A stretch of DNA of 64,000 bases, taken from Chloroflexota bacterium. Its GTDB lineage: Bacteria > Chloroflexota > Dehalococcoidia > Lucifugimonadales > JADFKI01. A program made the translations under genes and the position numbers. A model generated the notes under the pieces. It saw only the letters and a list, made by a program, of their open reading frames with translations, had not been told where the DNA came from and searched no databases. Every line of letters begins with the position of its first letter. The stretch's first letter is position 1. The stretch covers positions 31,015 to 95,014 of the forward strand of contig JAQBUT010000008.1 in the NCBI GenBank assembly GCA_027623195.1, in the 5' to 3' direction. Positions 1 through 19,055 of this stretch are shown piece by piece.

Positions 1-2690
1 GCTACGCCCACAACATCAAAAGCGCCAAGAGGCTGGCCGAGAGGGCCCGCCCCGAGGTGTGGGACATCCTGGAAGAGGTAGTGAAGGACAGGCCAGTTCT
101 TCTAAACCGAGCCCCTACCCTTCACAGGCTGGGTATTCAGGCATTCCATCCGGTGCTTATAGAGGGTAGCGCCATAAGGCTTCACCCGCTGGTGACGACG
201 GCTTTTAACGCCGACTTCGACGGAGACCAGATGGCTGTGCACGTACCCCTTTCTAGGGAGGCGGTGCAAGAGGCCAACCGGATGATGCTTAGCACTTACA
301 ACATGTTGGCGCCTAGCTCGGGTGAACCTATAGTCGCGCCAACCCTGGACATGGTGCTCGGCTGCTTCTACATGACGCAGATCGAGGAAGGCGCCAAAGG
401 CACCGGTCATGAGTTCTCCGACTTCGAGGACGCCCGTTTGGCTTACGAGGTAGGCGTGGTGGACCTTAGGGCATTGGTCAAGATCAAGCATGGGCCCGAG
501 TCTTTGGTAAACGCCGAAACAAACGTGTCGGGTTCGTTGGAGACAACCGTGGGCCGCATGATCTTTAACGAGAATGTGCCTGACGAGCTTGGTTACCGCA
601 ACGGAGAGATAGACAAGGACGCGCTGAAATCCATCACGTCTGAGGCGCACACTATCCTAGGCAACGTGAAGACGGCAGTGATTTTGGACGCATTCAAGGA
701 TTTGGGCTTCCATTACGCATCCAAGGCCGGCATCACCATAGCCATTAATGACATTGAGATCTCGCCTGAAAAGGACGTGATCGTGGGCTTGGCCGAAACC
801 AAGGTCACTCAACTGGAACAGCAGTACATGGACGGCCTCATCACAGAAGATGAGCGTTACCGTACTGCAGTGGACATCTGGACCAGGGCCAGTGACGACG
901 TTACCCAGATGGTGCAGGACAACCTGAAGAACTACGGTGGCATCTACGTTATGGCCGCCTCGGGCGCCAAGGGTAACATCGCGCAGATAAAGCAGATGGC
1001 CGGTATGCGTGGACTGATGTCGGACCCCAAGGGACGTATTATTGAGCGGCCCATCAAGGCAAACTTCCGCGAGGGACTGAGTGTTCTGGAGTATTTCCTT
1101 TCGACGCACGGTGCTCGTAAGGGACTGGCTGACACGGCCCTGAGAACTGCGGACAGCGGCTATCTGACCAGGCGTCTCATCGACGTAGCCCAGGAGATCA
1201 TCGTATTGTCCGACGACTGCGAGACTGCAGGCGGCATATGGGTAGAGAACGGTGTGCAGGATTCTCTGCTTACGCCGTTTACGGACAAGGTTCGCGGCCG
1301 TTATCTGGCTGCGCCTGTTGCTGATGCAGAAACAGGCGAAATCATCGTCGACAAAGGAGAGTTGCTTAACGACATAACTCTCGCGAAGCTGCAGGAGGCA
1401 AATACGCCTGGAGTGTTCGCACGATCACCTTTGGCCTGCGAGGCTCGACGTGGTGTATGCAGGTTGTGCTATGGCGTATCCATGGCCACGTGGGACCCCG
1501 TCCTCATCGGTGAGGCGGTAGGCATTATCGCAGCACAAAGCATTGGTGAGCCTGGCACGCAGCTTACTATGCGTACCTTCCACACAGGAGGTATCGCCGG
1601 TGCCGACATCACCAGCGGTCTGCCCAGGGTGGAGGAGCTATTTGAGGCTCGTACACCTAAGGGTGAAGCGGTGCTTTCTGAGATTGACGGTACCGTGGAA
1701 GTCCATGACTCCACTGAAGGTCGCACAATACAGGTGATAAGTACTGAAGACTTCAGTGACGAGTACATCTTGCCGGCCGGCTATCAGGTGCAGGTCAGCG
1801 AGGGTGACATCGTTAATGTCGGCGCGCAACTGGCAGTCAATGGCGAAGAGGAAAGTGGTGAAGAAACCACAGCGCTGGCGTCCAACGATATCATCGCCAG
1901 GGTCTCAGGTGTCGTCCGGATAGAAGGCGATACCCTGAGCATAAGTTGGACCGACGAGGACCAAAGAGAGTACGTGATTCCTGCTGCTTCCCACATCATG
2001 GTGGCGTCAGGGGACCAGGTGGCAGCCGGAGAAACATTAACGGCAGGCCCCAAAAACCCGCAGCAGATCCTGAGAATACAGGGTCGCGAGGCCGTGCAGC
2101 AATACCTCATTGAAGAGGTTCAGAAGGTGTATCGGTCCCAGGGTGTGACCATTCATAACAAACACATAGAGGTCATCATTTCCCAGATGCTGCGCAAGGT
2201 GAGGATCGATAGTCCTGGCGACACGGGGTTGCTGCCGGGTGAGCTGGTGGACCGCCAACCCTACGAGGACATAAACGCCGGCATATTGGCGGAGGGTGGA
2301 GAGCCTGCTACGGCTAGCCCTGTTCTCCTGGGTATAACCAGAGCCTCCCTCAACATGGAAAGCTTCTTGGCCGCGGCGTCCTTCCAGGAGACCACACGGG
2401 TGCTCACAGAGGCTGCAGTTAATGGCCAAGTGGACTACCTCCGAGGTCTAAAAGAGAACGTCATAATCGGTAGGTTGATACCTGCCCGCCTGGATGGCAC
2501 CGTGGAAGGACGCAAATACCTGGGCATTCCCGAGGAGCCGGAACTAGAGCCAATCGGAATACTATCGAACCCTCTTGACGGGGACGGTTTCCAAGAAGGC
2601 GAGTCCGGTGAAATTGTGGAAGACCAGATTGCTCCAGCAGGATTTGACATGGAAAAGGCTGTGGAGGAAACGCCGGTGGGTGACGACTAG
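1..2690 (+). CDS. rpoC: DNA-directed RNA polymerase beta' subunit, 5'-truncated by the window edge
   Basis: NADFDGD catalytic motif, [27 protein letters not shown]. The frame stays open to position 3 ([10 protein letters not shown]). Confidence 0.99.
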
Positions 2691-2852: not shown

Positions 2853-2929
<77 letters not shown>

Positions 2930-3018
2930 TGCATCTAATCAGTTAGATAGCCCATCCCCCTTTAGCTTCCTTAGTTATGTTAAGGGGAAGATGCTTTCCA
3001 TATAGAGAGGAGTACTCC

Positions 3019-3444
3019 TTGGCAGACCAACCTAGCGAAAAGTCGATGGACCGAATGCGCAAAATGGTTGATAAGTTTTGCGAGAAGTCCGGAACCTTTA
3101 AGCATCCTGGCGAGGGTATCACCGAATCTGTCGTCCTCGGCCTTGCACAGAATATGGACGAACTTGGCAGGCCATTATGTCCCTGTAGGTTCTACCCGGA
3201 CAAGAACGAGGAAGCCAAACATCGCACGTGGATGTGCCCCTGCGATGACATGCAGATATACAAGTACTGCCATTGAATGCTTTTTGTGACGGAAGAGGGT
3301 CTTCCGATAACGGAGCATCTGCCTGAGGATCACGAAGGGCTTCAAATGTACGGTGAGGTGAAAGATCCCACCCCGAACAAGGGCAGGGCATTACGAGATA
3401 AGGCGGAAGAGCGCGAGATAGAACGAAAAGAACGCCCTTCTTAA
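3019..3444 (+). CDS. ftrC: Ferredoxin:thioredoxin reductase catalytic subunit, predicted selenoprotein (Sec at TGA 3274-3276), about 141 aa
   Basis: CPC...CPC...CH(TGA)MLFV matches the FTR CPC/CPC/CHC motifs. The frame stays open for 55 codons after the TGA to TAA 3442-3444. TTG start follows GAGAGGAG. trxA is directly downstream. Confidence 0.9.
3290..3306 (+). promoter_or_regulatory. SECIS-like hairpin in ftrC
   Basis: cggaaga-GGG-tcttccg; the loop starts 20 nt after the UGA. Confidence 0.7.
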
Positions 3445-3483
3445 ATCAACCAAATTGATGCGGCAAAAGACATGGAGGTCTAG

Positions 3484-3813
3484 ATGGCAGTACCAATAGC
3501 GGTAACAGACGCAAATTTCGACGAAGAAGTATTACAGTCGGACATCCCCGTTCTGGTGGACTTTTGGGCGGAGTGGTGTGGCCCATGCAAGATGATATCG
3601 CCCGTAGTAGATGAGCTGGCGGAAGAGTATGACGGCAAGGTGAAATTCACCAAAGTCGACGTGGACTCCAATCCCAAGACAGCCATGAATTACGGCATCC
3701 GAGGCATTCCTGCACTGCTTATCTTCGATGGCGGCAAAGTGGCCAAACAGGTCGTTGGCGCTGTGCCTAAGGCCTCCCTGAAGAAAAGTATCGACGAAGC
3801 CATCGGGGGGTAA
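3484..3813 (+). CDS. trxA: Thioredoxin
   Basis: WCGPC active site, 109 aa, GGAGG RBS. Confidence 0.98.
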   Translation: MAVPIAVTDANFDEEVLQSDIPVLVDFWAEWCGPCKMISPVVDELAEEYDGKVKFTKVDVDSNPKTAMNYGIRGIPALLIFDGGKVAKQVVGAVPKASLKKSIDEAIGG

Positions 3814-3847
3814 CGGGCCAGAACCCTCCCTCCTATTTAGGAAATCG

Positions 3848-3899
3848 AATGGGCCTGCCGCTTCGGTAAAGAGTCGGGTGCGGCAGGCCCATTATTTTG
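3848..3899 (+). terminator. Rho-independent terminator after trxA
   Basis: 14-bp stem aatgggcctgccgc/gcggcaggcccatt followed by attttg. Confidence 0.7.
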
Positions 3900-3944
3900 T
3901 TCGCGTATTTTGGGTTCCGGTAATCAAATGCGCTGCCATAACGG

Positions 3945-3973
3945 TTGACCAGGCGCCCTAGAGCGGCTAACAT
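3945..3973 (+). promoter_or_regulatory. sigma70-type promoter for tRNA-Asp
   Basis: TTGACC-N17-TAACAT. Confidence 0.55.
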
Positions 3974-4022
3974 TTAATTGGGCGTTTAGGCTCAATTTTT
4001 TGAGCACTCAGCTCATATTCGC

Positions 4023-4099
4023 GGCCCCGTGGTGTAGTGGTTTAACATGCAGCCCTGTCAAGGCTGAGATCGCCGGTTCGAATCCGGTCGGGGTCGCCA
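4023..4099 (+). tRNA. tRNA-Asp(GTC)
   Basis: Acceptor ggccccg/cggggtc, anticodon arm cagcc-ctGTCaa-ggctg, GGTTCGAATCC T-arm, CCA. Confidence 0.97.
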
Positions 4100-4412
4100 C
4101 CAGTTCAAACTTCAGCCATCGTTGTATTTCTCAATTTGCCTCCAAGATATTCTTAGCGCTTCCCTTCGCAGGCTTGTAATTCGGTCGTAATCAGGGAAAC
4201 TCCGTCTAGCCACGCCACGTTTTTCCAAACTGTGCACCTCTGCTCACCGACTCCCAATTCCCACTCATTTATGCTGCCGACCGCCACGCAAAAAATGGGC
4301 TGGCGGACCTATTTATCCTTTCTGCCTAAATCGGTATATACTGTTGCCCAATCGGGTATGCCGACGAACGGCATGACTTTTAGCAAGAGTGGTATAGAAG
4401 GAGGTCCGGAGT

Positions 4413-6101
4413 ATGGCCAAGGTAGAAGGCAGCTACTTAGTAGCTAAGGCGATTCAAAATGAGGGCATAACCACGCTTTTCGGGTTACCCGGGGGGCCGG
4501 TGGTGGAGGTAATAGGATTTGCGGCTCAGCTAGGCGTAAGGCCAATTAGCGTAAGGCATGAGCAGGCCGCCGCGCTCTCAGCCGCCGCATACGGCTATGT
4601 CAGGAACGAGGTTGGCGTTTGCGTGCTGGCTGCAGGGCCTGGTGTAACGAACGCTTTGACAGGCGCGCACGTGGCCTTCGACAACGGCCTACCCATAGTG
4701 CTCCTGGGAGGGTCCGGCCCTCAGCATGGGCGTTACTCCGGCACGTTCCAAGAGACAGATAACGTGCCGATGTTCAAGAGTATTACCAAGATGTCGGTTC
4801 AGATAGATAGCGCAGCCCGCATTCCTGAATACATGTCCATGGCGTTCCGGAAGGCCCGAAGCGGCCGTCCTGGACCAGTCTACCTGGACCTTCCTTCAGA
4901 CGTTCTTCAGGCAGAGGTCGAGGAAGATGACGTCAAGTGGCCGGTGAATTATTTCGCGGACGTGCATCCCATGGGCGACGCCAATCAGGTGAAGAAGGCC
5001 GCCGAACTGCTGCTAAACGCTGAAAGGCCGTTGATGATTGTCGGCAAGGGCGTTCGCTGGTCTGAGCCTACTGAAGAGCTCAAGGGTCTGGTTGAGGAAC
5101 TGGGCATGCCTTTCATATCGTCACCAATGGGACGCGGCTTCATTCCGGACGACCATCCCTTGAATGCTGCTGCCGCTCGTAGCACAGCAATCCGAGGTGC
5201 AGATGTTGTTCTTATGGTCGGCGCCAGGATGAACTGGATGTTCGATTTCGGTCGAGGGTTTGCACCCGATGCCAAGATCATCCACGTAGACATCGAGCCG
5301 GGAGAAATCGGTATCAACCGAGCCGTTGAGGTCGGCATTGTAGGCGACGCCAAGGGCGTTCTGCAGCAGATATTGACGGAGATTGATGGCAAGACGGACG
5401 GCATAGCGGATAAGGCCGAAGAAGGGCCGTGGCTAACATCTATCCGCGACAAGGCCGCTTCCAACGGAGCCGCTATCGAGCCCCTTTTGAACTCTGACAG
5501 CGATCCTATCCGCACATTCAGGATGATGAAGGAGATTCGCGACGTCTTCCCCAGGGATACCATCTACTGCGTGGACGGCCAGATGACTTTGGGCACAGGT
5601 CGGCAGGTGCTCCAAAGCTACACACCGGCAAGTCGCCTAAACTCAGGCTCCAATGGCTGCGTGGGCGTGGGAGTGCCCTTCGCTGTTGGCGCCAAGCTTG
5701 GCCGACCGGACGTGCCTGTTGTTAGCATCAACGGCGACTGCGCCTTCGGATTCAACGCCATGGAGATGGAGACGGCGGTACGCCACGGTATTCCCGCGAT
5801 ATTCATCATCAACAACAACTCGGGCATCGTTGGTGGCACTATGGAGGCGAAAATGGGCCTTCCCGAAGGATACGGTGAGAGAGTGGCGACCTATGTTCAG
5901 GACATTCGCTACGACAAGATTATCGAAGCCTTTGGTGGATATGCAGAGAACGTTACCCATCCAGAGGAGCTACGACCTGCCCTGGAGCGGGCGTACGAGG
6001 CGACAAAGGCCGGCAAGGTTGCATGCATTAATGTCATTTCTGAGCATATGGAGATGATGGTCAACACTGCCACACGGGCCAGCGCCCTGATGGGTTACTA
6101 A
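4413..6101 (+). CDS. Thiamine-diphosphate-dependent enzyme (2-hydroxyacyl-CoA lyase / oxalyl-CoA decarboxylase / ALS-like)
   Basis: RHEQAA, GPGxTN, GRPGPVYLDLP, and the ThDP motif GDCAFGF...NN. Confidence 0.9.
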   Translation: MAKVEGSYLVAKAIQNEGITTLFGLPGGPVVEVIGFAAQLGVRPISVRHEQAAALSAAAYGYVRNEVGVCVLAAGPGVTNALTGAHVAFDNGLPIVLLGGSGPQHGRYSGTFQETDNVPMFKSITKMSVQIDSAARIPEYMSMAFRKARSGRPGPVYLDLPSDVLQAEVEEDDVKWPVNYFADVHPMGDANQVKKAAELLLNAERPLMIVGKGVRWSEPTEELKGLVEELGMPFISSPMGRGFIPDDHPLNAAAARSTAIRGADVVLMVGARMNWMFDFGRGFAPDAKIIHVDIEPGEIGINRAVEVGIVGDAKGVLQQILTEIDGKTDGIADKAEEGPWLTSIRDKAASNGAAIEPLLNSDSDPIRTFRMMKEIRDVFPRDTIYCVDGQMTLGTGRQVLQSYTPASRLNSGSNGCVGVGVPFAVGAKLGRPDVPVVSINGDCAFGFNAMEMETAVRHGIPAIFIINNNSGIVGGTMEAKMGLPEGYGERVATYVQDIRYDKIIEAFGGYAENVTHPEELRPALERAYEATKAGKVACINVISEHMEMMVNTATRASALMGY

Positions 6102-6123
6102 ACCCGAGATTAGGAATTAGAGT

Positions 6124-6171
6124 GAGCCGGGTACAAGCTGAGCTTCAGCCTGTGCCCGGCTCTTTGGTTTT
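6124..6171 (+). terminator. Rho-independent terminator
   Basis: gagccgggtaca...tgtgcccggctc followed by tttggtttt. Confidence 0.65.
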
Positions 6172-6197
6172 ATCAACATGACAAATTGGAGGATAGC

Positions 6198-6749
6198 ATG
6201 GCTAGAATACCGCAACTGACGACGAAAGAGGATGTGCCCCAGGAGCACCAGCACATCGTTGAAGAGATTATGGGGAGCCGAGGCGGTCGCATAAGCGGGC
6301 CCTTCTCGGTCCTTTTGCATAACCCGGAGGCTGCAGGGCGATCGGCCCATCTGGGAAGCGCGCTACGATTCGACTCCACCACCCTCACCAAAGACCTGTT
6401 GGAGATTGCCATCAACACCGCGGCCAGGGAGAGCGACTGCGGTTACCAGTGGGCAGGACACTATAAGCTGGCTCGGGAAGCCGGCGTCAGCGAGGCCACG
6501 TTGGACGTCATAGCCAACCACGGCTCGCTGGGCTCTCTCTCCGAGGACGAGGCCCTGGTAGTGCAGTACGGCAGAGAGCTATTTCGCGATCACAGGATAT
6601 CCGAGGCCACTTACGCTGCTGCTTCTGAGCGGTTCGGCACGCGCGGACTGGTTGATCTAACGGCCCTGATGGGTTATTACGGCATGCTTGCGTGTTCCCT
6701 AAACGCCTTTGACGTGCAACCTCCGTCTGACGCTCCTAAGCTGCCCTAG
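6198..6749 (+). CDS. Carboxymuconolactone decarboxylase / AhpD-like family protein
   Basis: GPFxxLLHxP, ExAI...AR...C.YQW..H, GLVDLTALMGYY pattern. ATG follows GGAGG. Confidence 0.8.
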   Translation: MARIPQLTTKEDVPQEHQHIVEEIMGSRGGRISGPFSVLLHNPEAAGRSAHLGSALRFDSTTLTKDLLEIAINTAARESDCGYQWAGHYKLAREAGVSEATLDVIANHGSLGSLSEDEALVVQYGRELFRDHRISEATYAAASERFGTRGLVDLTALMGYYGMLACSLNAFDVQPPSDAPKLP

Positions 6750-7013
6750 CGTCCTTAAATATACGATGCTGTGGCCAGGTTGTGCGGCAAATCATGGCCT
6801 TCTGGTAATGCCTAGTCGGCCCCCGTCGCCGACCTGCCGAACGATGAACCTGGCCACGCTTTACCCTTTCACCATCCTCTGGTATATTGTGCTCCGTAGG
6901 CCGAATACGTGCGTGGGAAAACATTATTATGGTCTGGAAATATGGGATTTTCCCACTTACATTTAATTCGGTCATCACTGGAGAATTTGTTAGCTAGATA
7001 GAGAGGGATATTT

Positions 7014-8306
7014 ATGGCAAAGAAGGTAGGTCAGTATATAGAGCGGCCCGGCAGGCAGCCTGGTGATGCCCCGATCATCATTCCGGTGGCCGAAAGCTTA
7101 ATGACGGAGCCAGGCATCCCAACTCGTGAGCGAGACGTTTCGTTCTTCAGTCGAGAAGACCCAATAGAAAACATGGCTCTTTCTGAGAGCGCCTCGGCTG
7201 AGTGGTCAAGGGAAGAGCGCATCCAGCATTCACCTGAGGCCAACGAATTCTTCGACAAGCATGAGGAGAATATGGGGCCAATTGTAGAGTGGGTGAGGCA
7301 CAGTGGTGACCTTGAGCCCACCGGCTCCCCCTCAGGTGTTGATGTCTCGGAGGCAATTCGAGAGAAGGCCCGAGAGCTTGGCTATGGCGAGGTAGGATTT
7401 ACCCGAAACGACGCACACTACGTTTACCAGAGCCGCAAGCGCCCGCTAAGGAACGACCTGCCGCATGCAATATGTCTTGCGTTGGAACAGGACTATGTTA
7501 AGACGCAGACCATTCCTAGTATGGATGCTGAGGACACCCATTTCGGCACCTATGAAGATCAGGGACCGAAGTCCCAGGAGCTTACCGACTTTATAAGGGA
7601 CCTTGGGTACAGCATTCAGGTCTCTGGTCCTACGTGGCATTACGGGCCTATGATTCCGCTGTTTGTTCAGGCGGGCCTTGGCCAGCTTGGCGCCAACGGC
7701 CAGTTGCTGTCACCTCACTTCGGCTCCCGCGCGCGACTGCAGATCATCTATACCGATGCGAAGGTCACCTACGACGAGCCTATCGACTACGGCATTCACC
7801 AGTTTTGTAACGAGTGCCAGGTATGCGTCAACCGCTGCCCTGGCCGCGCTCTTATGGCCGATAAGGTCTGGTACAGAGGCGTCGAGAAGAACAAGCTGGT
7901 ATTCAAGCGGTGCAGGCCGGTCATGGCCAGGTACCTCGGCTGTGGTGTCTGCATGAAGGTCTGCCCTATCCAGAAGTACGGAATGAAGCCCGTAATGGAA
8001 CATTACGTCGAGACCGATGGCGAAATACTGGGCAAGAATACAGATAACCTTGAAGGCTACTCGTTCCCAGATAAAGGTTACTTCGGTCCAGGTCAGCTTC
8101 CCACATTTGAGCGAACGTTCTTCGATATGCCCAAAGGTCGAGCAGAGGACTGGCTGCTGCTGGAATTCCGCGACAAGCTCTTCGAGAATGCCGCGGCTGA
8201 GGGCAAGGATAAAGAGGATATGTGGACGGAGTTCCGAGAAAAGGTAGAGCAGTCCATGGACCGTCGAGGCATGGCCGTTGATATGGGCATGGATCTGGGG
8301 GTTTAG
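7014..8306 (+). CDS. Reductive dehalogenase / QueG-like cobalamin and 2x[4Fe-4S] protein, no TAT signal
   Basis: AGLGQLGANGQLLSPHFGSRARL...TD, FCNECQVCVNRCP and C...CGVCMKVCP. Confidence 0.8.
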   Translation: MAKKVGQYIERPGRQPGDAPIIIPVAESLMTEPGIPTRERDVSFFSREDPIENMALSESASAEWSREERIQHSPEANEFFDKHEENMGPIVEWVRHSGDLEPTGSPSGVDVSEAIREKARELGYGEVGFTRNDAHYVYQSRKRPLRNDLPHAICLALEQDYVKTQTIPSMDAEDTHFGTYEDQGPKSQELTDFIRDLGYSIQVSGPTWHYGPMIPLFVQAGLGQLGANGQLLSPHFGSRARLQIIYTDAKVTYDEPIDYGIHQFCNECQVCVNRCPGRALMADKVWYRGVEKNKLVFKRCRPVMARYLGCGVCMKVCPIQKYGMKPVMEHYVETDGEILGKNTDNLEGYSFPDKGYFGPGQLPTFERTFFDMPKGRAEDWLLLEFRDKLFENAAAEGKDKEDMWTEFREKVEQSMDRRGMAVDMGMDLGV

Positions 8307-8352
8307 CCGCTCCGGAGGCAATCAACGACCAGGCTAATATGGTTGGTAACTT

Positions 8353-8391
8353 GGCGGGGACGCTTTTCATATGCGTCCCCGCCTTTATTTT
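8353..8391 (+). terminator. Rho-independent terminator
   Basis: ggcggggacgc/gcgtccccgcc followed by tttatttt. Confidence 0.8.
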
Positions 8392-8443
8392 AGGCGGAGA
8401 TTCTTGACCGCCATGCACCCGTCTACATCGCACCGCATGGCGT

Positions 8444-8473
8444 TTGACGAGCAAATCACGCCGGTGCTACACT
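8444..8473 (+). promoter_or_regulatory. sigma70-type promoter, possibly driving the DUF255-grd operon
   Basis: TTGACG-N18-TACACT with TGn. Confidence 0.5.
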
Positions 8474-8545
8474 GGGGTAATTTCGCTCCGACTATTTCCG
8501 TCCTAACGTTGGGCAACTACCCAAAAAAACGTCCGAAACGAGGGT

Positions 8546-10291
8546 ATGTTTCGATTTTCGCCAAATCCCAACAGAGCGCACCTTGTTAACTGGCGCGAGT
8601 GGGGCCTGGAAGCATTCGAGGAGGCCCAGCGACAGGACAAGCTGGTCATGCTCTACCTCGGCGCCTTCTGGTGCGGCTTTTGTCAGCGTATGGACGAGAC
8701 CACGCTGTCCGTTGATGAGACCCAAACTCTGCTAAATGCCTACTTCATTCCAGTGCGCGTAGAGGATGCTCAGAGACCCGATCTCAACGCTCGCTATAGC
8801 CAGAACGGCTGGCCAACCATCGTCTTCATGACTCCACAGGGCGATCATGTGGCCAGTGTGAACTACATGCCGCCCAACGATTTTTGTGATGTTCTGGTTC
8901 GGCTTTACCAGATGTACACGGAGCAAAGGCAGGAGTTGGAGCAATCGCTTGCCGAGGCCAACCAGCAGTCATCCCAGGTTAGCACGACGTCTGAGCCTGC
9001 CAGCCCGCGTTCAGAGTCCGTCGCCGAGATCGCTGAAACGCTCATGGGTTTGGCAGACCCTATCTACGGCGGCTACGGACCGGACCACAAGTTCCTGCAT
9101 CCTGAGGCGCACCAGTTTCTGCTGTCCCGTTACCATGCTACCGGGGACCGTGCCTACGTAAACCATGTGGCCCTGTCTCTGGAGCAAATGAGGCGAAGCC
9201 AGACTCACGATAACCAGGACGGCGGGTTTCACCGCTACTCCTCAAAACGCGATTGGACAGAGCCCCACCAGGAGAAGCTGCTGGCAGACCATGCCGGATT
9301 GTTGAGCACATACCTCCACATGCTCGTCATTACTGGAGAGGCCAGGTACGAAGAAATGGCTCAGGAGATTATCGATTTTCTTGATCGAAGGCTCTCTGAT
9401 GCTGATGGCGTGGCGTTTCTAGGCTGTCAGGACTACGTTCGCGCAGTGACCAGGCGCATCTCCGAAGGCCAGGAGGCAACCCCCCGAGAACCCGGCAGCA
9501 CTTTTTGGATAATCGACGATTGGGTCTACACCGACGCCAACGCCCAGGCAGCCTCCGCCTACCTGCACGCATACCAGATACTTGGCGAATCTCGGCTAAG
9601 GGAAAGAGCTCTCAATGCTTTGGACTTTTTGTGGGAACATTGCCGGGACTCGGAAGGTCGCGTGTGCCACTACTTTGACGGTAGTCCCTACGTTCCGGGT
9701 CTTCTAATCGATAAGACGCATTTGGCCCATGCCAACTTGGATGCCCACGCCGTCACCGGTGAGCCTGGGTATTTGGAACGTGCAACGGCTCTAGGCCAAA
9801 GCATTCTCAGCGAGCACAAGAACCCCGCGGGCGGCTTCTACGACATTAGCGAGAATGGACCGGGACATCTTCGGCACAAGTTGACGTTGCTTACGGAGAA
9901 CGGCCTGGTGGCCTCGCTAATGCTCCGGCTGTCGGATGTCACTAGCGACATCTCTTTTGGCGAGGGCGCGACGTGGGCGCTGGGGGCCTTTACCGATGAC
10001 CTGTCCCCCTACGGAGTATTCGCTTCGGACTTCGGAATGGCCATGGCTGGGTACATGTCCTCTCCCCTCACCGTGACGCTGGAAGCAGCGCCGGGAGACC
10101 CCCAGGCTCGTGTGTTAGCGTTGTCCGCCATGGACCGATTGACTGAACGCCGCGTCACCTGGATTTTTCGACCGCCGGATGAAAAGGCGAAGGCTGCTTT
10201 ATACCTGGAGGATGGCGACTCCAAAGTAGGGCCAATATATGAACCGGCACAGTTAACGCCGGACCTGCTAACGGCGGCCCGTCTGTCTTAA
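8546..10291 (+). CDS. DUF255 / YyaL (SPATA20-like) thioredoxin-domain plus alpha/alpha-barrel protein
   Basis: VNWREWG.EAF..A...DK...WCGFC..MD..T, GWPT.VF.TP, GGFHRYS...W..PH.EKLL.D. Confidence 0.88.
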   Translation: MFRFSPNPNRAHLVNWREWGLEAFEEAQRQDKLVMLYLGAFWCGFCQRMDETTLSVDETQTLLNAYFIPVRVEDAQRPDLNARYSQNGWPTIVFMTPQGDHVASVNYMPPNDFCDVLVRLYQMYTEQRQELEQSLAEANQQSSQVSTTSEPASPRSESVAEIAETLMGLADPIYGGYGPDHKFLHPEAHQFLLSRYHATGDRAYVNHVALSLEQMRRSQTHDNQDGGFHRYSSKRDWTEPHQEKLLADHAGLLSTYLHMLVITGEARYEEMAQEIIDFLDRRLSDADGVAFLGCQDYVRAVTRRISEGQEATPREPGSTFWIIDDWVYTDANAQAASAYLHAYQILGESRLRERALNALDFLWEHCRDSEGRVCHYFDGSPYVPGLLIDKTHLAHANLDAHAVTGEPGYLERATALGQSILSEHKNPAGGFYDISENGPGHLRHKLTLLTENGLVASLMLRLSDVTSDISFGEGATWALGAFTDDLSPYGVFASDFGMAMAGYMSSPLTVTLEAAPGDPQARVLALSAMDRLTERRVTWIFRPPDEKAKAALYLEDGDSKVGPIYEPAQLTPDLLTAARLS

Positions 10292-10327
10292 TAGACCCTG
10301 CACCCGTTTAATGAGAGGTAATAAGTT

Positions 10328-11608
10328 ATGCGTTTGACCTTAGCCCGCCACCCGGTAACGGAGATAAAATTCGGCGACGAGACGTCACTTGATGGAACGG
10401 CGCTGTCGATAAACGAAAGCGAGCTCCGCGCGCTACTGTTGGAGGACCAACGCCTGGAAAGCGTAGGCTTGGACGTCGTGCGTCCGGGAGAGAACTGCCG
10501 GGCAGGGCCTGTCTTCGACATCATAGAGCCCAGGGCCAAGGCGGATGGAGGCAGCCCGGACTTCCCTGGAGTACTGGGGCCATCAGCCATAGCTGGCATT
10601 GGCACGACCCACGTCCTGGAGGGCGCGGCCGTTACGGTGGTGGATTGCCGTCCCACTGTCACAGCGCGTGCGGCCAAGCGCAGCATACTGGAGATGAGTG
10701 GAGAGGGGGCGGCCCGTTCACCCTACTCTGCCCTGCAACACCTGGTTTTGACTCCGCGTTCGAGAGCCGATGTACCGTCCCATTCGGCCCTAAACGCAAC
10801 GCGCATGGCCGGGCTTAAGGCAGCGGTCTACATGGCGCAGGCCGCACGAACCAGGCAGCCCATCACCACCGAGACGCTGGGTCCGATAGGGCCGACGGAA
10901 CCGGGACGCGAGGGCCTGCATCGAGTGGCCTACATCGGACAGATCTACTCCCGGCAGCGCTCTCCGGAGATTGATGAGCATATCTTCTACGGCCTGAACA
11001 CAACTGGCATGTTGCCGGTGCTCACTAACCCCAACGAGTGGTTGGACGGCGCTGTTTTGCCCTCTTATGACACGTCGTTGGGCGGCGCGGAGACGTATTT
11101 TTACCAGAACCATCCTGTGATTACAGACCTCTATCGACGCCACAACGAAGGCGAACTGAACTTTGTCGGCGCAGTCGCGTCCATATCCGGTCTGGACAAC
11201 GAAGACCGGGATCGGTTGTGCCAGGTGGCGGCGCACCTCGTCAAATGGGGACTCAACGCCGATGCGGCGGTACTCACCAAGCACGGCGGTGGAGTGCCCC
11301 ACGCCGACATGGCGCAGACGGCCCGCCTGCTAGAGCGCATGGAGGTCAGCACGGCCGTTATGGTGTCCGATATGTCCAGGGACCGCCGCGTAGAATCCGC
11401 GCTGCTTTTTAACTTCCCCGAGGTGAACGCCATCGTATACTGCGGCGGCGGCGACACAAAGTGGACGGTTCCGGCTGTGGAGCGCATCATCGCGGGCAAT
11501 CCGCAGGTGGAGGAGATGTTGGCACAATCGCAAGAACTCATGGCCTCCAGCATAGCCGGCGTCGTGAATCAGCAGGGCGCCAGCCACGTAAGAGCGATGA
11601 CCTACTAG
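10328..11608 (+). CDS. Glycine/sarcosine/betaine reductase component B alpha/beta subunit (GrdE/GrdG/GrdI family)
   Basis: PGE.CR..PV.DIIEPRAK, G.G.THVLEGAAV, PNEWLDGAV, TY.YQN.PVI..LY..H..ELNFVG; lies directly upstream of grdB. Confidence 0.88.
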   Translation: MRLTLARHPVTEIKFGDETSLDGTALSINESELRALLLEDQRLESVGLDVVRPGENCRAGPVFDIIEPRAKADGGSPDFPGVLGPSAIAGIGTTHVLEGAAVTVVDCRPTVTARAAKRSILEMSGEGAARSPYSALQHLVLTPRSRADVPSHSALNATRMAGLKAAVYMAQAARTRQPITTETLGPIGPTEPGREGLHRVAYIGQIYSRQRSPEIDEHIFYGLNTTGMLPVLTNPNEWLDGAVLPSYDTSLGGAETYFYQNHPVITDLYRRHNEGELNFVGAVASISGLDNEDRDRLCQVAAHLVKWGLNADAAVLTKHGGGVPHADMAQTARLLERMEVSTAVMVSDMSRDRRVESALLFNFPEVNAIVYCGGGDTKWTVPAVERIIAGNPQVEEMLAQSQELMASSIAGVVNQQGASHVRAMTY

Positions 11609-11686
11609 TCGGGTTTGGTGAAAGATATATAATCTTGATACATGCCCTGGCCTGGTTCATATGGTTAATGGGGCAGGAGGAAGAAA

Positions 11687-12970
11687 ATGAAAATAGTCCA
11701 CTACGTCAATCAGTTCTTCGGAGGCATCGGCGCCGAGGAGGAGGCTGGTAGGCCGTTGGAGATCCGGGAGGGCGCTGTTGGACCCGGGCGTCTGTTGGAA
11801 CAGCTATTCGGAGACGGCTCTCAGGTTCTCACGACGTTCGTGTGTGGCGATAACTACGCTGTGGAACAGCAGGACCAACTCATCACCGATGTGTTGAACC
11901 ACCTGCGCGCTTCAGGAGCAGACCTGTTCGTAGCAGGGCCATGCTTCGAGGCGGGACGATACGGCATGGCCGCCGGCGCTCTGTGCTCTGCAGTGCAGGC
12001 CGAGCTTCATATTCCTGCTGTAACGGCTATGGGTGGGGAGAATCCCGGCGTCGACCTGTACCGCGAGGAGCTATTCATCGTGGATTCCGGCGCCAGTGCA
12101 TCGGCCATGAGCCAGGTGGTCACCCGTATGGTGGCGCTGGGCAAGAAGCTAGTAGCCGGTGAAGAGATTGGCACACCTGCCGACGAGGGCTACATTCCCA
12201 GAGGGCTTATTCGGGATGCCTTCGTTGAGCAGAACGCGGGCCAGCGTCTTGTTGCCATGGTCATGGACAAGGTCAATGGCGATCCATTTGAGTCCGAGAT
12301 GATGTCCACCTCATTCGAGCCAATACCCATGCCGGCAGCAGTGGCCGACATATCCAAGGCCCGGGTTATGGTCATTACCGATGGCGGCCTGGTGCCCTCG
12401 GGCAACCCTGACGGCATCGAGGGCATGGCCGCCACCCGCTGGGGAACCTACAGCATTAAAGACAAGGATGGCCTGGACGGCAAAGACTACGAGATCTCCC
12501 ACGGCGGCTACGACCCCAGGTTCGTCGAAGCGGACCCCGACAGGCTTGTGCCTCTAGACGCTCTCCGTCAGATGGAGAAAGAGGGCATCATTGGGGAGTT
12601 GCACAACGAGTTTATTTCCACATCCGGGTTGGCCAATCCTCTCTCCAATACTCGGCGCATGGGCAAGGAGATGGCCCAGAGGGTCAAAGAATTGGGGGTG
12701 GACGCGGTAATCGTCACATCCACCTGAGGCACCAGCACTCGCAGCGGCGCTGCGATAACGACCGAACTGGAGAAGGCTGGCATACCGGTAGTGCAGATTA
12801 CGTCAGCTCTGCCAATAGCCAAGATGGTGGGCTCAAACAGGGTAGTTCTTGGGAACGGGATTGTTCATGTTGCCGGAGACCCCAATCTGCCCGTCAACGA
12901 AGAGAAAGACCTGCGACGCCGACTGGTGCAGAAGGCGCTGGACGCTCTGGAGTCGGAGGCGAAAGAATAA
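11687..12970 (+). CDS. grdB: Glycine/betaine reductase selenoprotein B (Sec at TGA 12725-12727), about 427 aa
   Basis: MKIVHYVNQFFGGIG, GPCFEAGRYG, ENPGV, HGGYD...DPDRLVPLD. VIVTST-TGA-GTSTRSGA...ELEKAGIPVVQI...VGSNR...GDP continues in frame to TAA 12968-12970. Confidence 0.95.
12739..12755 (+). promoter_or_regulatory. SECIS-like hairpin in grdB
   Basis: tcgcagc-GGC-gctgcga; the stem starts 11 nt after the UGA. Confidence 0.7.
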
Positions 12971-13010
12971 CCTGTCGAAAGTCTTATAAGCGACCCGAGG
13001 TGCACCAGAG

Positions 13011-14468
13011 ATGATGGGCATGACATCTCCAGGCAGGTTGCCGGTTATCACAGGCGTGCGACATTTTCTTGCCCATACGCCCGGGTTGGTGCGATATGGA
13101 CACAAGCCGTCGCTGGATATCGCCAGAAACGCGGCCGTCGCAGAGAACATCGCGGGCCACCTGCGAACCTTTTCTGAGGCAGTCGCCTACCCGCCTAATC
13201 GCGCATACCTCGGCTCCATCTACCCTGACCAGCTTCGGGATATTCCCAGGCCCTGGTTCCTGCAAAACGGTCCTGCGGAACGCCGACAGCCTCATGGGGA
13301 CATGATGCCGGAGGAAGAGTTTTACGCCATTTTGAAAATGGCTGACGACTTCGACATCGTCTGGCTGACTGAAGATTTTGTGAAAGAAGCAACGCAGAAT
13401 CTGCAGGATAACCCTCTGATCAGTTCCGCAGACTTGGACAAGCTTACCGATGGCCACCAGCAATCCGGCATAGAGCAACGGATCGCCCAAGAAAGCTCTT
13501 TACCCCTCACTTTGAAGGATGGGCGGCTCATTGGCTGCGTAACTGGGGCTGCGGGCAGCGACGAACTCAACGCCGGGGTGCTGCTGGAGAACCTGGCCTG
13601 TAAAGCCACTGCTGCCATGGCGCTGCGCACGCTACTCCACGATGGTGGCTTCGATGCGACTCAGGTGCAATACATCCTTAATACGGGCGAGGAGGCCGTG
13701 GGCGACTCCTTCCAACGCGGCGGTGGCAACATGGCCAAGGCCGTTGGGGAGTTATGCGGTCTTGCTGGCGCTACCGGCTCCGACGTGAAGGCCTTCTGCT
13801 GCGCGCCCGTGCACGCACTGGCTATCGCTGGTTCTATGGTGACCTCTGGCTTGTATGACCGCGTGGTTGTGATAGGGGGATGCTCGCTGGCCAAGCTGGG
13901 TATGAACTACACCGGCCACCTGGACGCGGACCAGCCGGTGCTCGAAGACGTCCTCGCGGCATTCGCAGTGATGGTCGAGCCTGACGACGGTAAGAGCCCT
14001 GTGATTCGCCTGGACTCGGTCGGAGGGCACAACATCGGGGCCGGTTCGTCGTTGCGTGCCATATCCCGAACCCTCATGACTGATCCCTTGGCGAGGTTGG
14101 GATTTCGCTTCCAGGACATAGATAAATTCGCCATCGAGCTTCAGAACCCGGAGATCACCGAGCCAGCAGGTGGCGGCGACGTAACGGAGCGCAACTACCG
14201 AGTCATAGCGGGGCTGGCCGTTCAGAACCACGAGATTGATAGGTTGGACATACCCACATTCTCGGCACGGCACGGCATGCCTGGCTTCTCGTCGACGCAA
14301 GGGCACATCGCTTCTGCGGTGCCTTTCTTGGGTCACGCTGTGGACCACATTGGCTCTGGTGACATGCAGAGGGCTATGTTCGTGGCGAAGGGAAGCCTGT
14401 TCCTGGGCCGCATGACGCAAATGTCGGATGGTTTCTCTTTTATACTGGAGCGCAACCCTGCCCGCTAA
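13011..14468 (+). CDS. grdC: Glycine reductase component C beta subunit (FabH/thiolase-like); exact start uncertain
   Basis: EEAVGD..QRGGGNMAKA, ATGSDVKAFC..P.HAL, LAKLGMN, NPEIT.PAG.GDV...NY, HGMPGF..TQGHI.S, KGSLFLGRMT. Confidence 0.93.
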   Translation: MMGMTSPGRLPVITGVRHFLAHTPGLVRYGHKPSLDIARNAAVAENIAGHLRTFSEAVAYPPNRAYLGSIYPDQLRDIPRPWFLQNGPAERRQPHGDMMPEEEFYAILKMADDFDIVWLTEDFVKEATQNLQDNPLISSADLDKLTDGHQQSGIEQRIAQESSLPLTLKDGRLIGCVTGAAGSDELNAGVLLENLACKATAAMALRTLLHDGGFDATQVQYILNTGEEAVGDSFQRGGGNMAKAVGELCGLAGATGSDVKAFCCAPVHALAIAGSMVTSGLYDRVVVIGGCSLAKLGMNYTGHLDADQPVLEDVLAAFAVMVEPDDGKSPVIRLDSVGGHNIGAGSSLRAISRTLMTDPLARLGFRFQDIDKFAIELQNPEITEPAGGGDVTERNYRVIAGLAVQNHEIDRLDIPTFSARHGMPGFSSTQGHIASAVPFLGHAVDHIGSGDMQRAMFVAKGSLFLGRMTQMSDGFSFILERNPAR

Positions 14469-14540
14469 AGATGCACAACATGCAATAATGGGGCCTGCTT
14501 TAACAGGTCTGGAATTTGGTGAACCACGGAGGCCAATGGA

Positions 14541-15011
14541 ATGGATTTGAAGGGGAAGAAGGTCATAGCCCTGGGAGAGAGGGATGGCGTTCAGAGCGGT
14601 TCTATTGTCGAATGTGTTAAGAGCGCCGGGGCCGAAGTGGTGATGGAGTTCACTGCCTGTTTCGTCTGAACGTCCGCTGGTGCGCTTGACCTGGAGGGTC
14701 AAGAGATGATCAAGAGGGCGGCAGATCGGGTCGGCACCGAAGACCTCGTCGTAGTGTTGGGCACTCCCACCGCTAACAGCAGCAAGCTTTTCGCCATGAC
14801 AGTCACGGAAGGCGATCCCACATGGGCTGGTCCTTTGGCCGGCGCTGGGTTAGGTATCCCCGCCTACCATGTCATGGAAGACGAGATCAAATCTCAGGTA
14901 GACGAATCGGTTTACGAGGACGAGGTTGGTCTAACCGAAATGACTATTGAGAACCCTGACGAAATTCTCGCAGCCGTCAAAGCGGTGCGGGAGAGCAACG
15001 GCTTAGCCTAG
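14541..15011 (+). CDS. grdA: Glycine reductase selenoprotein A (Sec at TGA 14667-14669), 156 aa
   Basis: MDLKGKKVIALGERDGV...TACFV-TGA-TSAGALDLE..., in frame with track ORF 14706-15011 (TVTEGDPTWAGPLAG). CxxU motif, GGAGG RBS. Confidence 0.96.
14685..14703 (+). promoter_or_regulatory. SECIS-like hairpin in grdA
   Basis: cttgacct-GGA-gggtcaag; the loop starts 23 nt after the UGA. Confidence 0.7.
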
Positions 15012-15099
15012 GATTTTTTCAGGGCGTTTTACGGGTGGAGTCTCTTGGCAGCCCAGGCGAGAGTTCGGTTATTGAAATTCAACGTAAGCGAGGTTCGAG

Positions 15100-15999
15100 A
15101 TGGATTACCAGGTTTGGGTTAACGGCGAATACGTGGCACGCAGCCAGGCCACCATCAGCATGATGGACCGTGGCTTCAGGCTCGGCGACGTAGTATTCGA
15201 TACGTCACGCACCTTCAATGGTAAGGTCTTTCGGCTGCGGGACCACCTTGATAGGCTGTACCGGTCGCTGCAATACACCCGCATAGACCCCGGTCTGAGC
15301 AAGGACGAGATGGAACTTATCACGCTGGGTGTGGTACAGCAAAACGAGGCCATGCGGGAGGGGGCTGGCGACGACTATCAGATTACTCAGATCATAACGC
15401 GAGGCGTCGGGCCGATACAGAACCCGTCCAGTCCCAATGTCTCCATCTGGATTGACCCGTTGGGCGGGCCTCGTTTCGCCCCTCTATACAAGACGGGCGC
15501 TCACGTCGTAATTCCCAAGACCCGCAGCTACACTGCCGAGCAGATCGATCCCAAGGTCAAGCACTACAGCAGGCTCAACTTCGTGATGGCGGAGCTTGAG
15601 GCCACCGACGTAGACCCCGAAGCCCTCCCCCTTCTTTTGGACACCGACGGCAACATCACCGAGGGCATTGGCGCGAACTTCTTCATGGTTAGCAATGGCG
15701 TGCTGAAGACCGCCAGAGACAACGACATATTGCAGGGCGTATCCCGCATGACCGTTTTCAATTTGGCTGAGCAGCTAGGCATACCTGTTGTCGAGGAAGA
15801 CCTCCAGCCTTACGACGTTTACACCGCAGACGAAGCGTTTCTCTGCAGTACCCCTTACTGCATTTTGCCGGTGGGCCGAGTCGACAACCGAGCCTTGGGA
15901 GAGGGCGCTCCCGGTCCGATAACCAACCAGCTGCTAGCTGCCTGGAGCGAAAGAGTAGGCCTCGATATAGTTGATCAACTTGGCAGATTGACTCAGTAG
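15100..15999 (+). CDS. Aminotransferase class IV (branched-chain / D-amino-acid type)
   Basis: DRGF..GD.VF, HL.RL..S, catalytic K in PKVK..SRLN, EG.GANFF, ILQGVSR, ADEAFLCST. Confidence 0.93.
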   Translation: MDYQVWVNGEYVARSQATISMMDRGFRLGDVVFDTSRTFNGKVFRLRDHLDRLYRSLQYTRIDPGLSKDEMELITLGVVQQNEAMREGAGDDYQITQIITRGVGPIQNPSSPNVSIWIDPLGGPRFAPLYKTGAHVVIPKTRSYTAEQIDPKVKHYSRLNFVMAELEATDVDPEALPLLLDTDGNITEGIGANFFMVSNGVLKTARDNDILQGVSRMTVFNLAEQLGIPVVEEDLQPYDVYTADEAFLCSTPYCILPVGRVDNRALGEGAPGPITNQLLAAWSERVGLDIVDQLGRLTQ

Positions 16000-16087
16000 C
16001 TCACGATTTGAGACCTTCGCCATCCCAGGTTTATCCCTCTGTTGTACCGTTATCGGCCAAATCAATAATCTGTGAACCTGAAACGAA

Positions 16088-16116
16088 TTGTCATATCCCT
16101 ACTTCCGTGGTACTAT
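16088..16116 (+). promoter_or_regulatory. sigma70-type promoter upstream of infA
   Basis: TTGTCA-N17-TACTAT with TGn. Confidence 0.55.
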
Positions 16117-16346
16117 GACCGTGCTTCTCATTGAGACCTTGGTTGGTATCGCCAAAATATGGCGTGGACAAGCCTGCCACGGGTGCCTAATGGGAATCCA
16201 GAGCGGCATGCGAGATTTTACCTGGAACGGAAACGCATGCCTGAATTGGCGTCTGTGGGGATTGCCTAGGTAAGAGCCCTTCAGTTTTCGTCAAAGTCTG
16301 GTATTGTTAATGTATAAGGTTCTGTTTAGTCGTAACAGGGAGTTGT

Positions 16347-16565
16347 ATGGCAAAAAAAGAGGTGATTGAGGTTGAAGGAACGGTTTCGGAATCCCTTCCG
16401 AACGCTTCTTTCAGAGTGGAATTAGCCAATGGTCACCAGGTGCTTGCCTATGCTTCGGGCAAGATACGCCGCTTCTTCATCCGCGTCTTGCCGGGTGATA
16501 GGGTTCTCGTGGAACTCTCGCCATATGATTTGACTAGAGGCAGAATAACCTACAGGTTCAAGTAA
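16347..16565 (+). CDS. infA: Translation initiation factor IF-1
   Basis: [26 protein letters not shown]...[20 protein letters not shown]. Confidence 0.99.
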
Positions 16566-16657
16566 CCCCGTATCTATTGGCAGGTGACCGCACGTCTACT
16601 TTTTGTCGGTGTGTCCCTGTCTCGTTGCCTATGAAGAATTTGGGAGGCGTTTGAGAT

Positions 16658-18142: not shown

Positions 18143-18299
18143 TTGGACTGGCGGGGCTTCGAATCCCTATCGCCCACTGGTGGACGAATAGTCCCTACAG
18201 AAACCATATAAAGCATATACGAGGTGCGGACGAGCCATCGACTCAGATGGCCCATCCGCACCTTTTGATTTGTCCGCGATCCGGAAGCAGCGTTTAAGC

Positions 18300-19055
18300 A
18301 TGGATGCATTTAGCCTTATACAGATTCTGGTTGCCGTGCTTGCCACTTTGGCCGGTTCCACCGTGCTCGCTTCTCTGGGCTTCGGTATAGGGATGGTGGC
18401 AACTCCCATCCTGCTTCTTGTGTTGGACCCCCAGACAGCCGTGGTCGTGTTAAACGCGGTCAGCGTTCCCATAACAGGACTGCTGGTCTGGCAGACTCGC
18501 CGCCACCTCCGATTGAAGGATGCCATCCCTGTGGCCGCGTTGGGATTGGCCGGCGCTCTGATTGGCGCATATGTGCTGTCCGCCTCGGGCGAACGAGTCC
18601 TTCGCCTGAGCATCGTAGTCTTCATTATTCTCCTCACTGCTGCCACTGCCTTTAATCCTGTTGGCCTACAAGGGAAGGTCCCCTACCCCAAAGTGGTCGG
18701 CGGGGCAATAGGCTTCCTGGTCGGGGTAATGCTGGGGGCGCTGGCTATTGGCGGGCCGCTGCTGGTCCTGTTCGTCCTTAGCCAGGGCTGGGACCGGCAC
18801 CGAATTCGCGCCTTTCTGTCGTTATATCTATTCGTGATAATGTCCTCCGCCACGGTTGGGTACATCCCCACGGGGCTGTTCACCCCAGACCGCATCGTCT
18901 TGGCGCTGGTGGCCCTGGGGCCTGTGCTTCTGGGCTTCTGGGTAGGCAGTCGGGTGGCAGGCCGTTTGAACGAGGAGCTTTTCCGGCGTGTGGCCATTGG
19001 CGTTATCGTGGCGTCCAGCCTGTCAGTGTTAGTGCGAGAGCTAACCAGCCTTTAG
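18300..19055 (+). CDS. Sulfite exporter TauE/SafE family membrane protein
   Basis: Multiple TM helices, GFG.GMV..P.L and G...G...IGGP repeats. Confidence 0.85.
   Translation: MDAFSLIQILVAVLATLAGSTVLASLGFGIGMVATPILLLVLDPQTAVVVLNAVSVPITGLLVWQTRRHLRLKDAIPVAALGLAGALIGAYVLSASGERVLRLSIVVFIILLTAATAFNPVGLQGKVPYPKVVGGAIGFLVGVMLGALAIGGPLLVLFVLSQGWDRHRIRAFLSLYLFVIMSSATVGYIPTGLFTPDRIVLALVALGPVLLGFWVGSRVAGRLNEELFRRVAIGVIVASSLSVLVRELTSL

Follow-up and report, generated by a model that had tools for sequence, protein, structure and literature searches.

The window analyzed here, a 64,000-nt stretch of contig JAQBUT010000008.1 from a marine Chloroflexota genome (GCA_027623195.1; G000 below, 87% complete), encodes a selenocysteine (Sec)-containing catalytic subunit of ferredoxin-thioredoxin reductase (FTR), FtrB, next to a thioredoxin, TrxA, and farther downstream a set of glycine-reductase-type (Grd) genes. 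We find this atypical, GrdD-less reductase to be real and conserved, and the literature searched does not describe it. The original prediction, made from the sequence alone, had joined all of these genes into one selenium redox system. Its observation is confirmed and its interpretation as a whole is partly supported. The account that we favor, with moderate confidence and with the mechanism proposed below included, is that the region holds two independent modules: a tRNA-bracketed ftrB-trxA unit and a DUF255-grdE-grdB-grdC-grdA block from a GrdD-less branch of the Grd family.

All of the named genes are present on one strand within about 13 kb (Table 1), as judged by profile scores and by a contig from an independent study that covers positions 2897–15228 unbroken, with 67 differing letters and 1 gap. 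The three in-frame UGA codons fall at known Sec positions: residue 100 of FtrB (3274–3276), within CPC...CPC...CHU; residue 347 of GrdB (12725–12727), within ST-U-GTSTRSG; and residue 43 of GrdA (14667–14669), where CFVU matches the expected CxxU. All 72 clade members, the window included, have TGA as the Sec codon of GrdB, and a single TGA is found in all 29 GrdA matches, which come from 28 of 30 related genomes. A genome search also recovered the Sec machinery on which the original prediction depended, namely SelA, SelB, SelD (with a TGA of its own) and tRNA-Sec. Because the TGA codons are conserved in GrdB and GrdA, the sel genes are present and the independent contig agrees, the UGAs are not errors. 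Hairpins follow all three of them; only that of GrdA beats shuffled sequences (z = −2.2, with 3 of 200 shuffles folding equally well), and the energy of the FtrB hairpin, 16 nt past the UGA, is indistinguishable from shuffles. On contig C46 of the genome, which also bears selD and selA, a second TrxA gene (48093–48410; 71% identical to the window TrxA) lies 173 bp upstream of the sole tRNA-Sec (48583–48680). As had been anticipated, routine annotation cuts the selenoprotein genes: the best 120 database relatives listed for GrdB are all 346–353 aa long and cover 81% of the query. Since that search gave solely truncated members of the same clade among the matches listed, canonical sequences were drawn from GrdD-positive genomes.

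We compared the region with 80 related grd loci, fetched via the GrdE-like protein (relatives at 52–69% identity) with flanks of up to 10 kb per side; the 49 that extend at least 2.5 kb in each direction are called fully flanked. Their metagenome-assembled genomes (MAGs) are labeled SAR202, Dehalococcoidia, Nitrospinota, Binatia, ‘Deltaproteobacteria’, Verrucomicrobiia, Acidiferrales and Entotheonella. At the genome level, we used 30 genomes holding the same GrdE clade plus 13 further published Chloroflexota with GrdC, for a total of 43. Among the 30, GrdA scored over its cut-off in 28 and GrdC in 27, and GrdD in none; none of the additional 13 had GrdD over the cut-off either, and the window's own genome gave no match at all. 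The same search applied to 401 Thermodesulfobacteriota genomes (the phylum of G016) as a positive control found GrdD in 6, at 478–544 bits. The lack of grdD that had been noted in the window is therefore borne out beyond it. That a GrdD was missed, either in the gaps of an 87% complete genome or as a divergent copy, and that the last step is canonical after all, strikes us as extremely improbable: none of 44 genomes, the own genome counted, exceeded the cut-off, single-chromosome assemblies (L090, L092 and L099) among them, and the search was sensitive enough to return 18- to 34-bit matches, probably to PlsX as the candidate, in 22 of the 43.

GrdC has a conserved cysteine, Cys263, in the motif DvK.FC..P of 26 aligned GrdC sequences, and the same residue is found in GrdD-linked GrdC. 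The gene stands beside grdA in nearly all of the 27 genomes with GrdC over the cut-off; the pair is often far from grdE-grdB and sometimes adjoins a second GrdE-GrdB pair that is 30–39% identical. Across Chloroflexota, GrdC occurs in 16 of 401 sampled genomes (a tally that counts G000 and the unpublished G093 and G327), and within the window's own order it is patchy, occurring in 3 of 25 relatives. The original prediction had placed the reductase in a host other than a Stickland fermenter, and the genome agrees: it carries two heme-copper oxidase subunit I genes, and acetate kinase was not found in it. Acetate kinase was over its cut-off in all 6 GrdD genomes versus 13 of the 43 GrdD-less genomes, and in none of 14 genomes from Chloroflexota, SAR202 and Entotheonella (G004, G006 and G018–G029). 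In G500 (C4:235477–236670) and G696 (C132:13625–14812), an acetate kinase gene lies directly beside a grd cluster that combines an unprocessed GrdE with a UxxSxxC GrdB, a third type that is likewise uncharacterised.

We also looked beside GrdC-GrdA for a substitute for GrdD. Clustering the open reading frames of 30 loci gave no gene common across lineages, and this line was dropped. The recurrent genes encode a class I pyridine-nucleotide-disulfide oxidoreductase (8), an NMT1-type binding protein (8), a macro-domain protein (8) and a HAD hydrolase (7); all are confined to the 16 GrdC-GrdA loci that were fetched, a set with no member from Dehalococcoidia or SAR202. In 8 of these loci, from soil, groundwater and similar MAGs (L130–L137 and L142; for example, L130:10480–11910), the oxidoreductase (476 aa, with a dimerisation domain) sits roughly 2.4 kb away from GrdC-GrdA and could be a lineage-specific electron donor.

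The substrate-binding pair is equally distinctive. GrdB comes directly after GrdE in 72 of 80 loci, and the contigs of the other 8 end within 700 bases past grdE. In NCBIfam, the GrdE-like protein best matches the models for GrdG (203 bits, cut-off 780) and for FarE (156.4 bits, cut-off 675; NF053623). Its Asn-Cys self-cleavage (pyruvoyl) site is absent, with PSYDT aligned to the glycine-type SGNCV. Asn-Cys is found at this site in only 5 of 111 aligned GrdE-like sequences (110 representatives of a 50%-identity library plus the window's protein), and no cysteine is invariant across 78 aligned GrdE sequences that include the window. In a FastTree phylogeny of 121 GrdE-like proteins, 7 Asn-Cys sequences formed one clade (support 0.925), and the window's GrdE fell in a different one (support 1.0), nested in a 28-member group (support 0.962). 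Because that group also holds a GrdD-linked UxxSxxC type (L161 and L162), GrdD and the cleavage site were lost in separate events. GrdB lacks the UxxCxxC motif that is canonical for glycine reductase (PMC13188914) and instead has UxxSxxS (U-GT-S-TR-S), as do all 71 other clade members, which are at least 57% identical. It stays below every substrate-specific cut-off: 429 versus 602 bits for glycine, 478 versus 800 for sarcosine and 441 versus 775 for betaine. Models of D-proline reductase are farther off (PrdA, 26 bits versus 700; PrdB, 82 versus 300).

The contrast with the clostridial-type glycine reductase is clearest in two control loci, L163 and L164, which are arranged grdE-grdB-grdC-grdD-trxA-grdA and have SGNCV in GrdE and U-GT-C-TR-C in GrdB; the one that was scanned, L163, passes the glycine equivalog TIGR01917 (617 bits versus 602). 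Both kinds share the CxxU of GrdA, the ST-U-G core of GrdB, a GrdE directly upstream of GrdB, the FabH-like cysteine of GrdC and the potential for several alternative protein-B pairs to use one GrdC-GrdA pair. The window clade differs in having no GrdD, no Asn-Cys site and UxxSxxS in place of UxxCxxC, and its host differs in having heme-copper oxidases and no detected acetate kinase. The window operon has neither trxA nor trxB, and the clade often has DUF255 instead. All 4 GrdD-type control loci have a trxA gene within the operon, compared to 0 of 80 GrdE-centered and 0 of 16 GrdC-GrdA-centered loci of the clade.

A closer parallel in motif pattern is the fluoroacetate reductase FarB/FarE of Cloacibacillus (PMC10838667): its GrdB also has no CxxC after Sec, and its GrdE also has no processing cysteines. 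The window protein is not an orthologue (156.4 bits against the FarE cut-off of 675, and 31% identity to the FarE-like representative P0141), and the gene-map legend for Cloacibacillus porcorum MFA1 in that paper lists grdC, grdD and trxA, whereas the window clade has no GrdD. By analogy, the shared departures point to a substrate that may not be bound as a Schiff base. Substrate and product probably both differ from those of glycine reductase, in line with the original prediction, and the substrate is probably not glycine.

Betaine is an abundant marine osmolyte, and the characterised betaine reductase works with GrdC, GrdD and thioredoxin. Could the window system simply be an ordinary betaine reductase, or else a sarcosine or glycine reductase, whose sequence differences are cosmetic? 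We consider this unlikely. JGI does use the names ‘betaine reductase’ or ‘glycine reductase’ for some members of the clade, and betaine reductase (GrdH/GrdI) resembles the window pair in having an unprocessed alpha-type subunit, GrdI, and a quaternary-amine substrate that is unable to form a Schiff base (PMC10838667, citing Bednarski 2001). Nonetheless, the window GrdB is far below the GrdH cut-off, it falls short of the sarcosine and glycine cut-offs as well, and GrdD and acetate kinase are both undetected in the genome. By eye, it also departs from the GrdB/GrdF motifs given by Nobu et al. (PMC9751293), with GAE for GGE and FEAGRYG for F[NF]AGRYG, and likewise at SHGGYDP and STSGLANP. In the same study, such sequences were removed by a motif filter. 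A study of Lost City writes ‘GrdEBCA’ without comment and names it glycine reductase (PMC9469722). In the literature searched, main texts only, we found no description of a GrdD-less Grd system or of a link to DUF255, and SAR202 was not found in combination with betaine reductase or a selenoprotein.

Next to this operon, the ftrB-trxA pair is a separate entity. FtrB is a genuine FTR catalytic subunit (88.6 bits against the PF02943 cut-off of 22) with the motifs CPC, CPC and CHU, Sec occupying the last position. An FTR catalytic subunit with Sec at a redox-active cysteine position has been known from marine microbes since the 2008 work of Zhang and Gladyshev (PMC2398784; NF041072). The window protein shares that feature but has one Sec (one UGA only) where the NF041072 family has two, and it scores 49.6 bits against that model's cut-off of 160. 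Moreover, the choice between Sec and Cys flips among close FtrB orthologues, with U in the window, L111 and L112 and C in six others. Other Dehalococcoidia relatives (L113–L118 and L153) carry a two-Sec FTR (CPU...CPC...CIU) that is about 30% identical to the window FtrB.

The original prediction proposed that this pair and the Grd proteins form one dedicated, co-evolved chain running from ferredoxin through Sec-FTR and TrxA to the Sec of GrdA. There is some basis for it: the genes share one strand within 13 kb, also in the contig of the independent study; thioredoxin is the textbook reductant of GrdA (PMC13188914); and neither of the two thioredoxin-reductase-like proteins described below has the HRR motif associated with NADPH. 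Synteny and co-occurrence nonetheless largely refute the chain, and we give it only a very small chance of being right. First, a hairpin, a tRNA-Asp and three unrelated genes separate trxA from the DUF255 gene. Second, the tRNA-Val-ftrB-trxA arrangement recurs in the same-genus genome G032 and also in G035 and G036, two members of a genus where none of 11 genomes has GrdC; tRNA-Val precedes ftrB in relative loci L150, L151 and L152, and tRNA-Asp follows trxA in G032 and G035 (loci L151 and L152) and was unseen at the G036 locus. Third, a credible FTR or TrxA gene was found within 10 kb in none of the 80 grd loci, the sole match being 50 residues long (E = 2.5e-4, in L064). Fourth, FTR was over its cut-off in only 12 of the 30 Grd-bearing genomes (Dehalococcoidia, SAR202 or Chloroflexota MAGs plus one Entotheonella) and was not near grd in any of the 12, with 0.33–2.4 Mb between FTR and GrdA where both are on one contig. 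Fifth, G032 has a recombinase fragment and a luciferase-like gene upstream of its thiamine pyrophosphate (TPP)-dependent enzyme gene, instead of ftrB-trxA. Finally, Sec in FTR varies between close orthologues irrespective of Grd. The expected co-occurrence and synteny of Sec-FTR with grd clusters thus failed to appear, and the FTR claim, from which the apparent new redox chain had arisen, does not hold. The position of ftrB-trxA beside the grd block is a chance juxtaposition, and the tRNA-bracketed pair is a free-standing housekeeping thiol-redox unit typical of the SAR202-like lineage, with or without Grd genes in the genome.

The statement that there is no trxB holds within the window only. 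The genome has 10 matches to the TrxB family, none on the window's contig, and two of them are TrxB-like genes with 335 and 328 bits against the TIGR01292 cut-off of 343.45 (C6:40463–41440, minus strand; C65:144641–145888, plus strand). Both proteins have the CATC redox motif, but VRG or ERG replaces the HRR of NADPH-dependent enzymes, and the one on C65 carries a fused glutaredoxin/NrdH-like CPDC domain at its N terminus. The first scores 266 bits to solved structures that we take to be thioredoxin reductases and only 82–97 to those that we take to be the clostridial ferredoxin-dependent type. From these motifs, the organism may be without an NADPH-specific thioredoxin reductase.

In place of an in-operon TrxA, the best candidate for the operon's own GrdA reductant is the DUF255 protein, a proposal that shares the moderate confidence of the explanation as a whole. 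The protein combines an N-terminal thioredoxin fold bearing WCxxC with an alpha/alpha-toroid-like domain, and the motif AFWC..CQrMDE is kept in 28 aligned clade members. In 19 of 49 fully flanked loci, which come from several phyla, its gene is no more than 600 bp away from GrdE-GrdB, either upstream and divergent (9), downstream on the same strand (6) or upstream on the same strand (4), and its protein cluster is present in 32 of 81 sources. A second paralogue, 32% identical, is found elsewhere in G000. Neither of the closest solved structures, 7TKV and 3IRA, has a function assigned to it.

The strongest competitor to this proposal, one that we would grant perhaps a minority share of the probability, is that the general thioredoxin pool, largely fed here by FTR-TrxA, reduces GrdA directly, with DUF255 protecting or maturing selenoproteins or handling substrate. 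Thioredoxin does reduce GrdA in characterised systems (PMC13188914), the genome has two TrxA genes plus FTR, and DUF255 is absent from 30 of the 49 fully flanked loci. Yet trxA, present in all 4 canonical GrdD-type clusters, is missing from all 80 and all 16 loci of the clade, where DUF255 recurs instead, and 18 of the 30 genomes with the system have no FTR.

Under the two-module account, the unprocessed GrdE-like/GrdB pair would bind a carboxymethyl compound, X-CH2-COO−, whose binding, as with betaine and fluoroacetate, requires no Schiff base. Sec347 of GrdB would displace X, with the carboxymethyl group moving to Sec43 of GrdA, and Cys263 of GrdC would turn it into an acetyl thioester while GrdA becomes oxidised. 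In the account attributed to Kohlstock et al. from 2001, GrdD reportedly bears the acetyl-phosphate-forming thiol. With no GrdD there would be no phosphorolysis, and hence the acetyl group would be released as acetate or acetyl-CoA rather than as acetyl phosphate. Most likely, then, the enzyme cleaves an X-CH2-COO− compound and acetyl phosphate is not formed. Oxidised GrdA would be re-reduced by a thioredoxin-fold dithiol, for which the WCxxC of DUF255 is the best candidate, and DUF255 would itself draw on the general thioredoxin pool, FTR-TrxA included in this organism.

Several points weigh against this account. Substrate, product and reductant of the clade are all inferred. DUF255 adjoins the pair in 19 of 49 loci and is absent from the remaining 30, COG1331 proteins are common in genomes without Grd, and DUF255 could have another role, such as protecting or maturing selenoproteins. 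The FTR-linked trxA is still the nearest thioredoxin gene and both TrxB-like proteins are without HRR, so that FTR may be a major source of reduced thioredoxin here. Acetate kinase is present in 13 of the 43 GrdD-less genomes, an unrelated protein doing the job of GrdD would be compatible with its absence, and the window's own genome is 87% complete.

Genes between the tRNA-Asp and DUF255 are neighbors of the block only within the genus. The TPP-dependent enzyme (413 bits to NF006721, below the cut-off of 557) is 81% identical in G032 and is not conserved across the 80 related loci, and the carboxymuconolactone-decarboxylase (CMD)-family protein is partly retained in G032. The reductive-dehalogenase-like protein is 90% identical and in the same place there, with paralogues in G000 at 61% and 55%; the position of its gene, directly upstream of DUF255-grd and thus next to a reductase with a motif pattern like that of fluoroacetate reductase, is suggestive but conserved only within the genus. 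Downstream, the aminotransferase follows grdA in G031 and G032 (84–89% identical) and appears among the 80 loci only in L024 and L027, about 9 kb off. Family III CoA-transferase is found in only 4 of 81 loci. We rejected the neighbors as a source of clues to the substrate: Amidohydrolase_2, NMT1-type and other binding proteins, luciferase-like oxygenases and dienelactone hydrolase recur but are typical of such genomes. A TauE/SafE-type sulfite exporter gene lies just beyond rpoD at 18270–19055.

G032 itself has a rearranged locus. In L125 (C292, 6196–6628), DUF255 stops at about residue 77 and joins GrdB at residue 359, a join that removes most of DUF255, the whole of GrdE and most of GrdB. 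In L127 (C276, 1765–6196), a different GrdB-GrdE pair (36% and 28% identical) and another TPP enzyme are found between the aminotransferase and rpoD. Judging from sequence, this arrangement looks like an exchange of the substrate-binding module. A large-serine-recombinase-like fragment (L125, 3–about 1000) lies upstream of the TPP, CMD and reductive-dehalogenase-like genes of G032 and hints that the block is mobile; repeats or a composition shift were not found in the window. There, GC over the grd genes is slightly raised (0.58–0.61 versus about 0.55), and the idea of a genomic island at the tRNA-Asp was dropped, with no direct repeat of the tRNA end in 3900–16700 and only a slight GC shift. 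A pattern scan returned 9 promoter-like sites (7.7 expected) and 15 terminator-like sites (12.5 expected), which is the chance level; the scanner's loop limit was 8 nt, and the hairpin after trxA, with its longer loop, is therefore unlisted by it.

Table 1. Features of the window from rpoC to rpoD, with coordinates and supporting evidence.
Feature	Position	Strand	Evidence or remark
rpoC	57–2690	+	Upstream flank
tRNA-Val (gac)	2853–2929	+	ARAGORN; upstream boundary of the ftrB-trxA unit
FtrB, FTR catalytic subunit, one Sec	2977–3444	+	PF02943, 88.6 bits; not part of Grd
TrxA, paired with ftrB	3484–3813	+	TIGR01068, 133.6 bits (cut-off 96.8)
Terminator-like hairpin after trxA	3851–3899	+	G+C-rich arms of 11 bp, a loop of 18 nt and a T-rich tail; found by inspection of the sequence
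tRNA-Asp (gtc)	4023–4099	+	ARAGORN; downstream boundary of the ftrB-trxA unit
TPP-dependent enzyme, oxalyl-CoA decarboxylase/2-hydroxyacyl-CoA lyase-like	4413–6101	+	PF00205, PF02775, PF02776
CMD/AhpD-like family protein	6186–6749	+	PF02627, 24.5 bits
Reductive-dehalogenase-like protein, two 4Fe-4S motifs	7014–8306	+	TIGR02486, 104 bits (below cut-off 160)
DUF255/COG1331 protein, WCGFC motif	8546–10291	+	PF03190, 92 bits
GrdE-like substrate subunit	10328–11608	+	PF09338, 257 bits
GrdB-family selenoprotein	11687–12970	+	TIGR01918, 466 bits (cut-off 65)
GrdC, protein C beta subunit, FabH-like	13011–14468	+	NF040746, 604 bits (cut-off 450)
GrdA, selenoprotein A	14541–15011	+	NF040748, 192.3 bits (cut-off 130)
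Class IV (branched-chain/D-amino-acid) aminotransferase	15100–15999	+	PF01063, 135 bits
rpoD	16658–18142	+	Downstream flank

In textbooks, glycine-type reductases belong to strict anaerobes, which gain ATP via acetyl phosphate. Here, a two-selenoprotein Grd system without the acetyl-phosphate subunit is found in a genome with heme-copper oxidases, and dozens of uncultured lineages from marine, soil and groundwater settings share this GrdD-less version, their genomes often encoding several alternative substrate-binding pairs. Because databases hold the selenoproteins as truncated fragments, the system is invisible to routine metabolic reconstruction. In a bolder reading, which we regard as speculative and rather doubtful, DUF255 would be a partner-specific reductant of oxygen-tolerant Sec enzymes, and the GrdD-less Grd of aerobic SAR202, Nitrospinota, Binatia and others would reductively break C-N, C-S or C-halogen bonds in abundant carboxymethyl compounds (betaines, sulfonium or sulfo-acetates, or haloacetates), passing the acetyl group from Cys263 of GrdC straight to CoA, with electrons in SAR202 ultimately coming from ferredoxin via the Sec-FTR/thioredoxin pool. 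If that were true, the COG1331 family (SPATA20/YyaL) would gain a first function, and dissolved organic matter would have a further route of entry. Knowing the substrate, the product and what DUF255 does would bear on carbon turnover by SAR202 and soil lineages, on selenium demand in oxic waters and on the function of COG1331/SPATA20.

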